The position numbers and the translations under genes are program-made. A stretch of DNA of 5,505 nt from a virus (taxonomy: Duplodnaviria > Heunggongvirae > Uroviricota > Caudoviricetes). Below are positions 1,961 to 5,505 of the stretch, piece after piece. Positions within the stretch are counted from its first letter, which is position 1; every line of letters begins with the position of its first letter. Under the pieces are notes generated by a model, which worked only from the letters and a program-made list of their open reading frames with translations, was not told the origin of the DNA and searched no databases. The stretch lies in IMG/VR virus record IMGVR_UViG_2690316184_000003; one strand, given 5' to 3'.

Positions 1961-3022
1961 ATGAAAAACACTGTAAAAATAAACAGTATTGATTTAATCA
2001 ACGCTGATTGCCTGCATTTTATTCAGTCCCTGCCTGATGATTCCATTGACCTGATTGTTACCGATCCGCCTTACTTCAAGGTGAAACCCAACGGTTGGGA
2101 CAATCAGTGGAAAGGGGACGAAGATTACCTTAAGTGGCTGGACCACTGTCTGGCCCAGTTCTGGCGGGTGTTGAAACCTGCCGGAAGCCTTTACCTGTTC
2201 TGTGGGCATCGCCTGGCATCTGATATTGAGATCATGATGCGTGAACGTTTCAACGTGCTTAACCATATCATCTGGGCGAAGCCGTCCGGACGTTGGAATG
2301 GGTGTAATAAAGAAAGTCTACGCGCATATTTTCCTGCCACAGAGCGCGTTCTGTTTGCTGAACATTACCGGGGGCCATATCGCGGCAAAAGTGACGGCTA
2401 TGTGGCAAAAGAAAGGGAACTCAAACAGCACATAATGGCACCGCTGATATCGTATTTCAGGGATGCTCGTGCCGAACTGGGTATAACGGCAAAACAAATT
2501 GCCGAAGCCACAGGTAAGAAAAATATGGTTTCCCACTGGTTTGGTGCCAGTCAGTGGCAGTTGCCGAATGAGGCTGACTACCGGAAGTTACAGGCACTGT
2601 TTTCCCGTATAGCGGCAGAGAAGTTTCAGGAACAACAACTGGAACAACCACACCACCAGTTGGTGGCATCTTATGATTCACTGAATCGCAAATATTCTGA
2701 ATTGCTGGATGAGTTTAAATCTCTCCGGCGCTATTTCTCCGTATCAGTCTCCGTGCCTTATACCGATGTCTGGATGCATAAACCCGTTCAGTTCTACCCG
2801 GGTAAACATCCGTGTGAGAAACCGGCGGATATGCTCAGGCAAATAATCAATGCCAGTAGTCGACCCGGCGATCTGGTTGCTGATTTCTTTATGGGATCCG
2901 GTTCCACAATAAAAGCAGCAATGGCGCTGGGGCGTCGGGCGTTAGGTGTTGAGCTTGAGACAGAGCGGTTTAATCAGACCATCCAGGAAATCAGTATGTT
3001 ATCAGCAAATACAATTTTGTGA
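1961..3022 (+). CDS. DNA methyltransferase, beta-class amino-MTase (N6-adenine or N4-cytosine), apparently orphan
   Basis: 353-aa ORF. Catalytic motif IV DPPY (IVTDPPYF) lies near the N-terminus and the AdoMet motif I FxGxG (DFFMGSGST) near the C-terminus, the circular permutation typical of beta-class MTases (PF01555-like). The middle region has an HTH-like segment (GITAKQIAEATGKK). No restriction endonuclease partner is recognisable in the window. Confidence 0.9.
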   Translation: MKNTVKINSIDLINADCLHFIQSLPDDSIDLIVTDPPYFKVKPNGWDNQWKGDEDYLKWLDHCLAQFWRVLKPAGSLYLFCGHRLASDIEIMMRERFNVLNHIIWAKPSGRWNGCNKESLRAYFPATERVLFAEHYRGPYRGKSDGYVAKERELKQHIMAPLISYFRDARAELGITAKQIAEATGKKNMVSHWFGASQWQLPNEADYRKLQALFSRIAAEKFQEQQLEQPHHQLVASYDSLNRKYSELLDEFKSLRRYFSVSVSVPYTDVWMHKPVQFYPGKHPCEKPADMLRQIINASSRPGDLVADFFMGSGSTIKAAMALGRRALGVELETERFNQTIQEISMLSANTIL

Positions 3023-3303: not shown

Positions 3304-3591
3304 ACAACGAATCCTTCTGATCTGCTTTTGCGGGGCTTTTTTGTATCCGCTCCATGCCCGGCGTATAAGCGGAGGTTGGTCAGTTTTCTAAAAATTGAAA
3401 TACCTCACAATTCAGCCAGTTAATGGTTGTTTGTCTGGCGAAGAGTTTGTAAATAAAAAAACGCATGGTGAATCCCCCTAAGCGGCGGGGCGAATCAGCA
3501 GTCAGTTCTGGGATAATCGCGGGTTCGTATGCTGATGCCGGACTCACCGGGAGGCACCCGGCACCATGCATCATGGTCATCCCCTTGTATG

Positions 3592-3618
3592 ATACCCCTC
3601 TCCGGAGGGGTATTTTTT
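3592..3618 (+). terminator. Rho-independent terminator ending the structured element at 3463-3590
   Basis: Stem ATACCCCTC (3592-3600) / GAGGGGTAT (3605-3613), loop tccg, then TTTTT (to 3618). Confidence 0.7.
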
Positions 3619-3622
3619 GGAT

Positions 3623-3885: not shown

Positions 3886-3943
3886 ACCCGCCAGCAAAAA
3901 TATGGGGGATGAACAGCTTTTGCTACTCAGGTTGCTGGCGGGT
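3886..3943. repeat. Perfect 12-bp inverted repeat separated by 34 nt
   Basis: AACCCGCCAGCAA (3886-3897) pairs exactly with TTGCTGGCGGGT (3932-3943). On the minus strand the hairpin is followed by a T-rich tract (plus-strand agaaaaaag, 3876-3884). Confidence 0.6.
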
Positions 3944-4051
3944 ATGGTTCTTCATGAAATAAGAATGTTACGCGGTATTTTTAATGAAAATGATAATTAT
4001 TGTCAATTGGTTGTGCGTATTTTTTCATACATGACTGGTAAAGGTGATTCA

Positions 4052-4083
4052 GGCCATCAGAGTTTTGCTGATGGCCTTTTTTC
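4052..4083 (+). terminator. Rho-independent terminator immediately upstream of the holin gene
   Basis: Perfect 9-bp stem GGCCATCAG (4052-4060) / CTGATGGCC (4068-4076), 7-nt loop, followed by TTTTTTcttt (4077-4086). Confidence 0.8.
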
Positions 4084-4115
4084 TTTCCGGTAGCACAGGT
4101 CTGTTGGGGCGGGAT

Positions 4116-4331
4116 ATGTATCAGATGGAAAAAATATCAACAGGCATTGCCTACGGCACCTCCGCAGGCAGTGCTGGCTACTGGTTTTTACAATGGCTTG
4201 ATCAGGTTAGTCCGTCTCAGTGGGCTGCGATTGGTGTACTGGGAAGTCTGGTTCTGGGCTTTCTGACTTATCTGACGAATCTGTACTTCAAAATCAGAGA
4301 AGACAGAAGAAAGGCTGCGAGAGGAGAGTAA
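4116..4331 (+). CDS. S: Class II holin (phage 21 S-like pinholin) with dual start (Met1 antiholin / Met4 holin)
   Basis: The translation [71 protein letters not shown] (71 aa) closely matches the S21 holin as I recall it. Two in-frame ATGs at 4116 and 4125 give the 71/68 dual-start arrangement. Two hydrophobic segments and a charged C-terminus. The track ORF from 4044 is a GTG extension that runs through the upstream terminator hairpin and is unlikely to be real. Confidence 0.85.
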
Positions 4332-4335
4332 TATA

Positions 4336-4680
4336 ATGGTCCAAAACTATGAAATGATTGTGAAAGGGATCCGCAATTTTGAGAATAAAGTTACGGTAAC
4401 TTTAGCATTACAGGACAAAGAACGCTTTGACGGTGAAATTTTTGACCTGGACATCTCGCTGGACCGTGTTGAAGGTGCCGCGCTGGAGTTTTATGAGGCA
4501 GCAGCCAGAAGGAGCATCAGACAGGTCTTCCTGGATGTTGCTGCCGGGTTATGTGGAGGGGATGAGCAGTCGCCGGAAAAGCGCCCCATAATTTTAGAGG
4601 CGCAGAGTGTGTGGATAACCTACAAAGGAAAACTGCCGGGAAGAATTACTGGTTCACTGAAGACTCCGCCGAAATGGTAA
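4336..4680 (+). CDS. Conserved prophage lysis-cassette protein of unknown function (resembles the small ORF found between holin and endolysin in E. coli prophages, possibly DUF826/YdfR-like)
   Basis: ATG 4336 lies 4 nt after the holin stop, with SD GAGGAGAG (4321-4328) overlapping the holin 3' end, which suggests translational coupling. 114 codons with protein-like composition. The family name is from memory and uncertain. Confidence 0.65.
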   Translation: MVQNYEMIVKGIRNFENKVTVTLALQDKERFDGEIFDLDISLDRVEGAALEFYEAAARRSIRQVFLDVAAGLCGGDEQSPEKRPIILEAQSVWITYKGKLPGRITGSLKTPPKW

Positions 4681-4918
4681 TTTCACCAGCATATTTTTCT
4701 TCCAGTAATACCGCCAGCCACTTGAAAGAATTTTGTTGTTGCTGGGACCATTTGGGGTTGAGTGATTCAAGCTGGAGCGATGCCAGTGTTGGTTGCATTT
4801 GTTCCTTGGGAATTGAGAATGCCAGATATGAAAATGCGACAGTAAGGGCATTTACATCATCCCGAAGCCTGGAAATGCAGTCGAGCAACTCCTGTAGAGA
4901 AATGGTGCTATTGTCCAT
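4646..4918 (-). CDS. Candidate small protein (90 aa) encoded antisense inside the lysis cassette
   Basis: On the minus strand a strong SD AGAGAGGA (plus 4925-4932) sits 6 nt upstream of ATG (plus 4916-4918). The ORF has protein-like composition (MDNSTISLQELLDCISRLRDDVNALTVAFSYLAFSIPKEQ...), unlike the Cys/Ser-rich plus-strand overlap 4611-4943. Its 3' end overlaps the 4336-4680 gene by 35 nt. A promoter-like TTGAAT-N15-TAAATA lies upstream on the minus strand. Confidence 0.4.
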   Translation of the reverse strand: MDNSTISLQELLDCISRLRDDVNALTVAFSYLAFSIPKEQMQPTLASLQLESLNPKWSQQQQNSFKWLAVLLEEKYAGEITISAESSVNQ

Positions 4919-5023
4919 AAACAATCCTCTCTATTGTATTTAACTATTCCTTGCCTGATTCAACAGGCCGGGACAGATAAACATATCCAGGGTTCAGAAA
5001 CCGATAAATCCTGATAAATATCC

Positions 5024-5505
5024 ATGAACGCAAAAATCAGATACAGCCTGTCGGCTACTGTACTAGTGCTGATTGGTGCAGGCGCGTCTGCTCCTCAAAT
5101 ACTTGACCAGTTTCTGGACGAAAAAGAAGGTAACCACACAACGGCATACCGTGATGGTTCCGGCATCTGGACCATCTGTCGGGGTGCCACGATGGTGGAT
5201 GGAAAACCCGTTTTTCCCGGTATGAAACTGTCGAAGGAAAAATGCGACCAGGTTAACGCCATCGAACGTGATAAGGCGCTGGCATGGGTGGAACGTAATA
5301 TTAAAGTACCACTGACCGAACCACAAAAAGCGGGTATCGCGTCATTTTGCCCCTATAACATTGGCCCCGGTAAGTGTTTCCCGTCGACGTTTTATAAGCG
5401 GCTTAATGCCGGTGATCGTAAAGGTGCCTGTGAGTCGATTCGCTGGTGCACATCAAAGCAGTCTGTCAGTCAGTGCGTGAAGCCACCACCGCCTCCGGCG
5501 TGGAT
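5024..5505 (+). CDS. R: Endolysin, GH24 (T4/P22-type) lysozyme with N-terminal hydrophobic SAR/signal-like segment; 3' partial (runs off the window)
   Basis: Translated by hand: MNAKIRYSLSATVLVLIGAGASAPQILDQFLDEKEGNHTTAYRDGSGIWTICRGATMVDGKPV...VPLTEPQKAGIASFCPYNIGPGKCF.... It shows the E...D...T catalytic pattern and overall similarity to P22 gp19-type lysozymes as I recall them. The hydrophobic N-terminus fits a SAR endolysin paired with a pinholin. No stop before 5505, which is why it is missing from the ORF track. Confidence 0.85.
   Translation, partial: MNAKIRYSLSATVLVLIGAGASAPQILDQFLDEKEGNHTTAYRDGSGIWTICRGATMVDGKPVFPGMKLSKEKCDQVNAIERDKALAWVERNIKVPLTEPQKAGIASFCPYNIGPGKCFPSTFYKRLNAGDRKGACESIRWCTSKQSVSQCVKPPPPPAW

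Follow-up and report, generated by a model that had tools for sequence, protein, structure and literature searches.

Among the closest described parallels to the gene treated here are bor of phage lambda and iss of Escherichia coli, both of which lie at the lysis region and face against the late operon. Bor is expressed in lysogens, and both products are outer-membrane lipoproteins with a signal peptide. In this study, we analyzed a similarly oriented open reading frame (ORF) on the minus strand of a 5,505-nucleotide stretch of viral DNA (IMG/VR record IMGVR_UViG_2690316184_000003, the whole of which is referred to as the window), where it occupies the space between ydfR and the lysozyme gene R of a P21/DLP12-type lysis cassette. 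In the same prophages, iss is found antisense just downstream of Rz. The product of the ORF differs from Bor and Iss in being predicted to be cytoplasmic and has no sequence relationship to either, while it matches the family PHROG 2411 over its full length. No function is annotated for this family, so that the match gives the protein a name without accounting for what it does. We consider it likely that the ORF represents a true cargo gene of independent acquisition (i.e., a moron) that is insulated from late transcription and acts on host physiology, and it is probably not a part of the lysis machinery. The features on which this reading is built are the following (positions in the window):

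4116–4331, plus strand: P21-type class II holin gene (PF04971, E 1e-35)
4336–4680, plus strand: ydfR (DUF1327; PF07041, E 2e-42), the convergent neighbour of the minus-strand ORF
4646–4918, minus strand: the ORF itself (ATG 4916–4918, stop 4646–4648, 90 amino acids), encoding a small acidic protein of PHROG 2411 with three predicted helices
4681–4962, no strand assigned: presence/absence segment carrying the ORF, its Shine-Dalgarno (SD) sequence and ~40 nt upstream; the right boundary is fuzzy and may reach ~4990
4919–5023, minus strand: upstream region of the ORF, with two candidate promoters
4925–4932, minus strand: SD sequence AGAGAGGA with core GAGGA, separated from the ATG by a 6-nt spacer (TTGTTT)
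5024–5446, plus strand: lysozyme (endolysin R) gene (PF00959), shortened in the window

The minus-strand ORF and its coding strand

The initial annotation of this DNA, which had been made from the bare sequence, placed the endolysin start about 690 nt beyond the holin stop, with about 340 bp of extra sequence between the holin-coupled gene and the endolysin gene, and drew attention to a near-ideal SD sequence 6 nt from the ATG and to a 35-nt overlap of the 3′ end with the preceding plus-strand gene. This geometry proved accurate throughout: the holin stop (4331) and the lysozyme ATG (5024) are 693 nt apart, the gap between ydfR and the lysozyme gene (4681–5023) measures 343 nt, AGAGAGGA is located at 4925–4932, and the ORF and ydfR share positions 4646–4680. 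The mechanical ORF listing gives 92 amino acids from an upstream TTG at 4924, while the RefSeq start is the ATG. Across 21 distinct upstream sequences, the GAGGA core of the SD sequence was kept in all except one (locus L097, with AAGGA).

The suspicion that this is a gene rather than an incidental antisense frame was borne out by several independent lines. RefSeq already annotates the ORF as the hypothetical protein WP_000370551.1, and its product matches the PHROG 2411 profile from end to end (E 3.1e-59, 198 bits; residues 1–90 on profile positions 1–90 of 90). A protein search moreover returned 64 homologue clusters from Escherichia, Shigella and E. albertii, with 68–98% identity and nearly all of exactly 90 amino acids, in which the N-terminal half is strongly conserved; more distant homologues are described below. 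At the DNA level, 1221 of the 5426 complete E. coli genomes contain the ORF-bearing segment. The ORF is thus an already annotated hypothetical gene of a known PHROG, and its kind, i.e., antisense cargo in a late region, is already known as well. No relevant publication was found on its WP accessions, on ybl58, on DUF1327, on ydfR together with a holin, or on morons in lysis cassettes.

The same DNA also contains a plus-strand mirror ORF (4611–4943, 110 amino acids), missed by the initial annotation, which spans the minus-strand ORF and shares its third-codon positions. The ratio of nonsynonymous to synonymous polymorphism (pN/pS) was 0.37 for the minus-strand ORF and 0.27 for the plus-strand mirror, with the other four frames near 1. 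Because the wobble positions are common to both frames, both strands look constrained, and a low value for the mirror frame is to be expected in any case; low values in two frames thus indicate that the DNA is coding, on one strand or the other. The ratio of nonsynonymous to synonymous substitution rates (dN/dS) was accordingly dropped as an uninformative strand test.

Other comparisons separate the two frames. In divergent copies, the plus-strand mirror frame is interrupted by stops at at least seven different positions, whereas the minus frame is constant at 90 amino acids (among E. coli copies that had been retrieved via their intact minus-frame proteins). When variants were counted as events, the 10 that change the minus-frame protein alone were all conservative (K/R, D/E, S/N, Q/H), while the 18 that change the plus-frame product alone included three stops and many radical swaps (S>R, N>K, L>R). 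The plus-strand product would consist of 20% Ser and 8% Cys. Furthermore, distant homologues are known for the minus-frame protein only, and in all 79 chromosomal orthologues from which it could be extracted the mirror frame is closed by stops. Based on the mirror-frame stops, the conservative minus-frame replacements, the distant homologues and the Ser- and Cys-rich plus-strand product, the coding strand is judged to be the minus strand, under purifying selection.

It had also been envisaged that homologues of ydfR might run through the region and render the antisense frame incidental. Longer YdfR-family proteins do exist, but they do not run through it, and stops close the plus frames of divergent copies. 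The ydfR stop (4678–4680) is conserved wherever ydfR is intact, and no plus frame is continuous with or homologous to the long YdfR proteins.

Occurrence of the ORF on mobile DNA and on the chromosome

The segment that carries the ORF is optional within its cassette. Phage vB_EcoS-611R1 shares the holin-ydfR-lysozyme cassette, but its ydfR–R gap measures only 63 nt, and its alignment with the window leaves a clean extra segment of ~280 bp in the latter. Most related phage records likewise align as two pieces that skip the ORF segment, and the protein is encoded in only 3 records of the phage collection, in contrast to the cassette itself, which is found in hundreds. The GC content of the segment is 42.6%, compared to 47.8% for ydfR and 50.4% for R, a modest difference. 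The proposal that the ORF is a moron is supported by its location on a ~280-bp presence/absence segment, by a GC content below that of the flanks, and by an orientation opposite to the late operon, which it shares with the neighbouring iss/bor gene.

The ORF was moreover encountered in a range of settings. In Stx2k phages, the order holin-ydfR-ORF is followed by an unrelated lysis module (holin8/holin3_7/M15 peptidase), and other contigs contain the ORF next to a ydfR that has shrunk to a C-terminal stub; the presence of the ORF does not depend on the type of downstream endolysin. A Citrobacter prophage carries a copy of 61% identity in antisense orientation, immediately upstream of a different holin. 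The 3′ end of this homologue (L108, Citrobacter freundii) is overlapped by a 63-aa gene at 5239–5430 on the minus strand of that locus, the product of which ends in ...KITGSLRAPIKL and thereby shares the C-terminal motif ITGSL(K/R)xPxK with YdfR (...RITGSLKTPPKW); the remainder of the two proteins is unrelated.

A more divergent copy (~60% identity) was found in E. coli F11 (L104, 2946–3218), among insertion sequence (IS) fragments and in divergent orientation 325 nt from iha, a siderophore receptor/adhesin gene. This locus is a decayed ydfR′-ORF-′R remnant, with recognisable residues of the 3′ end of ydfR and of the initial codons of the lysozyme gene, and the ORF is its sole intact gene; between the F11 and window copies, pN/pS is 0.27. 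In total, 73 E. coli records have their best match to the ORF in the 60–80% identity band, and a further copy resides on an IncF plasmid. With the most divergent E. coli protein as query, a search against viral contigs returned no confirmed match. In one Shiga toxin 2 (Stx2) prophage (L087, ORF at 4001–4273), an IS66-family element sits 48 nt upstream of the ORF start, where it has removed the distal promoter candidate and left the ORF intact.

The slot itself can hold other cargo. In Stx2-converting phage 86, orf6 is a 104-aa minus-strand ORF (L006, 2043–2357) in the same position and orientation, between a long YdfR-family (DUF1327) gene and the lysozyme gene. Its product gave no BLASTP alignment with the window protein at E ≤ 100. 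Since the same slot is occupied by this unrelated gene, the ydfR–R junction appears to have taken up unrelated cargo on more than one occasion.

Relatives outside E. coli were obtained in two rounds, first by searching 1.8 billion representatives with a profile and then by a word-indexed search. Distant relatives of 81–99 amino acids with 30–45% identity were present in Serratia, Sodalis, Citrobacter, Chania, Gibbsiella, Chimaeribacter and Acerihabitans (profile E-values 8e-5 to 2e-28). They share the core ELL..I..L...VN.L.VAFSYLAF....E....I..L.FES.N and have variable tails. In a reciprocal check, five of the distant relatives (including Citrobacter) matched PHROG 2411 themselves; the proteins of Serratia, Sodalis and Chimaeribacter did so with E-values of 5e-9 to 2e-13.

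In Serratia marcescens, the gene (referred to as X) sits between dinI and bssS. A chromosomal scan with one genome per species returned 149 loci, 80 of which were kept (from Serratia, Sodalis, Acerihabitans, Chimaeribacter, Pantoea, Mixta, Erwinia, Winslowiella and Biostraticola), and all 80 displayed the order pyrC-dinI-X-bssS-solA, with X in single copy and no lysis genes nearby. Among 25 Serratia species, pN/pS for X is 0.17. Ten dinI-X intergenic regions (from the L111–L190 set; about 100 nt upstream of X) were read: in each of them an intrinsic terminator after dinI precedes X, at least six contain a sigma-70-like promoter of X itself (TTGGAA or CTGGAA, a spacing of 17–18 nt, and TGTAAT), and most have a strong SD sequence. 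Control of X by LexA was considered and rejected, as the exact LexA boxes (locus positions 3527–3594, in the loci with listed positions) are located upstream of dinI, and the terminator divides dinI from X in the ten regions read.

Chromosomal X and the window copy are homologous, of similar length (89–99 amino acids for X) and built on the same core. They differ in that X is a stand-alone gene in fixed synteny outside any prophage, neither antisense to nor overlapping with a neighbour, whereas the window copy departs from it in all these respects. In E. coli K-12, the 286-nt gap between dinI and bssS holds no trace of X. Because of this empty gap and its location in a lysis cassette, the window copy is best regarded as a mobile paralogue or xenologue rather than an orthologue, and E. 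coli appears to have no chromosomal copy and to carry the gene only on mobile DNA. The modestly new point of this analysis is this tie to a conserved dinI-bssS chromosomal family that is missing from E. coli.

Expression and function of the product

Given its orientation opposite to the Q-dependent late operon and the SD sequence of its own, the ORF is expected to be driven by a promoter of its own in the ~100 nt upstream. Such a promoter, oriented against the late operon, would in turn permit expression while that operon is silent, i.e., in the lysogen, as for bor and iss. Two candidate promoters were picked by hand from the upstream region. The first combines TTGAAT (4958–4963) and TACAAT (4933–4938) with a 19-nt spacer, and its mRNA would begin inside the conserved SD sequence. 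The second combines TTTATC (5003–5008) and TATGTT (4980–4985) with a 17-nt spacer, and would give a leader of ~55 nt; TATGTT is found in the ORF-bearing variants, compared to CAGGTT in the ORF-less phage 611R1.

Within this putative leader of ~55 nt lies a conserved imperfect inverted repeat (TGTTTAYCTGT ... ACAGGTAAATA; 4937–4983), of which the left arm also occurs in ORF-less cassettes and the right arm belongs to the inserted segment. An operator function or an origin as the scar of a recombination event are both conceivable. A structured 5′ leader was rejected, as none of 18 predicted pairs had changed on both sides (i.e., no compensatory changes). Downstream, a hairpin inside ydfR (4577–4603, minus strand; GCGCCUC-9 nt-GGGGCGC followed by UUUU) is situated 43 nt downstream of the ORF stop. 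This GC-rich stem comprises 7 bp and exists on the minus strand only. It forms in the minimum free energy structure with a z of only –1.9, i.e., as a fold that is not statistically distinctive, and was missed by the terminator scan; it is also present in the ORF-less ydfR and in the iha-linked remnant. Possibly, it serves as an antisense terminator for the ORF transcript.

The 90-aa product has a mass of 10.2 kDa and an isoelectric point (pI) of 4.4, and contains neither a hydrophobic segment (maximal Kyte-Doolittle value of 0.88), nor a transmembrane segment or signal peptide, from which it is predicted to be cytoplasmic. AlphaFold2 yielded the same model from two alignments, with helices at residues 8–33, 38–52 and 59–77 and a mean predicted local distance difference test score (pLDDT) of 81. 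Residues 80–90, which are encoded in the ydfR overlap, are disordered in this model (tail pLDDT about 40), and the last ~10 residues may be an unstructured read-on tail without a separate role. No Pfam, NCBIfam, PADLOC or PDB sequence match was obtained for the window protein or its wider family (for the 90-aa product, no PADLOC defence family at E ≤ 1), and the three-helix model gave no informative fold match. Most likely, this small acidic helical protein would bind a partner in the host and thereby affect host physiology, and would not act on the holin or the endolysin.

How it might do so can be phrased more specifically from the chromosomal neighbourhood. The family could represent an unrecognised small regulator of the SOS/biofilm stress neighbourhood (dinI-X-bssS) that has repeatedly been captured by mobile elements and brought into E. 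coli, which has no copy of its own, giving about a fifth of E. coli strains a stress-response modulator encoded in a prophage lysis cassette. In a sharper version, the antisense placement would shut expression off exactly when Q-dependent late transcription begins. We regard this stress-modulator proposal as speculative and unlikely.

An improbable alternative is that the protein is a superinfection-exclusion, anti-defence or other factor of phage-host conflict that is expressed from the prophage. Its small size, acidity (pI 4.4) and helical make-up are shared with many phage inhibitor proteins, and its distribution is patchy and mobile. Against this stand the lack of any PADLOC match and of a membrane association, unlike classical superinfection-exclusion proteins, and the presence, in several genera, of a single-copy chromosomal orthologue that is stable, fixed in its synteny and under purifying selection, a pattern atypical for conflict genes. 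The superinfection-exclusion role proposed in the initial annotation thus found no support, as the protein has neither a membrane segment or signal peptide nor a PADLOC match.

The other role proposed there, that of a lysis regulator, fared no better, and we consider it quite improbable. The protein could modulate the pinholin or a signal-anchor-release (SAR) endolysin, or the antisense transcript could damp read-through endolysin expression in lysogens via convergent transcription or RNA pairing. Indeed, the ORF sits between ydfR and R in convergent orientation with a 35-nt overlap, the weak minus-strand hairpin and U-run in ydfR could end an antisense RNA, and the gene adjoins a holin in both E. 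coli and Citrobacter. Nevertheless, the protein lacks a membrane segment and signal peptide, many working cassettes do without the ORF, and the ORF is retained before the unrelated M15-peptidase module as well as in the F11 remnant, which has no holin, intact ydfR or lysozyme; the chromosomal orthologues in 80 species likewise have no lysis genes nearby. Location in a lysis cassette is also its sole likeness to known antiholins and lysis-timing regulators (S107, S21-71, T4 RI), which reside in the membrane or periplasm and are transcribed together with the lysis genes, whereas the window protein is predicted to consist of soluble helices and is encoded on the opposite strand.

It is harder still to credit a functional pairing of the ORF with its convergent neighbour ydfR, either toxin-antitoxin-like or mutually antisense-regulated. 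The 3′ overlap does recur in the Citrobacter prophage, with the 63-aa gene that ends in the YdfR-like motif, but ydfR is found without the ORF, the ORF is found without an intact ydfR, and the chromosomal orthologues have no ydfR partner. Weakest of all, and judged to be refuted by the strand comparisons above, is the notion that the antisense frame is incidental and that the true feature is the plus-strand mirror ORF (open over 110 amino acids in the window, with the lower apparent pN/pS), a C-terminal extension of ydfR or a non-coding spacer.

Several points nevertheless weigh against the interpretation of the ORF as an expressed and selected cargo gene. The promoter and terminator scan returned nothing at threshold near the ORF, and both hand-picked promoter candidates are weak or awkwardly placed. 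Broken copies also occur, with nonsense mutations at 3 of 96 loci and several clusters frameshifted to 94 amino acids, so that some prophages can evidently do without the gene. With regard to the strand, the retrieval of divergent E. coli copies via intact minus-frame proteins introduces a bias toward a constant 90 amino acids, and a pairwise overlapping-gene count found minus-only changes at a higher rate (0.19 vs. 0.10), an excess that can be attributed to a small number of frequent K/R polymorphisms and that shows the thinness of this test.

The surrounding cassette and the meaning of the ORF

The window as a whole covers the late genes of an E. coli prophage that is lambdoid and resembles P21/DLP12. 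Upstream of the cassette, its gene order comprises the following, together with two hypothetical genes in the Q–methyltransferase part:

46–750: antiterminator Q gene
1961–3022: DNA methyltransferase gene

Between the methyltransferase and holin genes, a strong Rfam match to the small RNA STnc100 was observed (3434–3622, plus strand; 114.5 bits, E 2e-25), across which several mechanical ORFs run. Just ahead of the holin, a terminator-like hairpin with a T-run (4051–4077, within 3986–4082, plus strand) is located inside an annotated 63-aa hypothetical gene (3902–4093). The stretch 3986–4082 also gave an SgrS-like Rfam match below threshold (24.8 bits vs. a gathering threshold of 37).

The lysozyme gene of the window is cut by a 384-bp deletion that reaches into Rz (a span of 1506 bp vs. 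1890 bp in most genomes) and fuses what is left of the lysozyme gene, which ends at 5446, with the 3′ portion of Rz (window 5024–5505). In full-length relatives, the lysozyme gene is followed by Rz and then by the antisense iss/bor gene. The window sequence is identical to that of strain KD602, in which RefSeq lists the lysozyme gene as a pseudogene, and to that of a few other strains. Because of the truncated lysozyme, this copy of the cassette is lysis-defective.

The understanding of phage lysis is unchanged by these findings. Their meaning lies rather with the cargo, as they single out a widespread uncharacterised small protein that about 22% of the complete E. coli genomes encode, among them those of BL21(DE3)-derived, ST131, and neonatal meningitis-associated and avian pathogenic E. 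coli (NMEC/APEC) strains, and mark the ydfR–R junction of P21-type lysis cassettes as a recurrent cargo slot. The conserved dinI-bssS gene of other Enterobacterales, finally, offers a concrete handle on the function of this protein.

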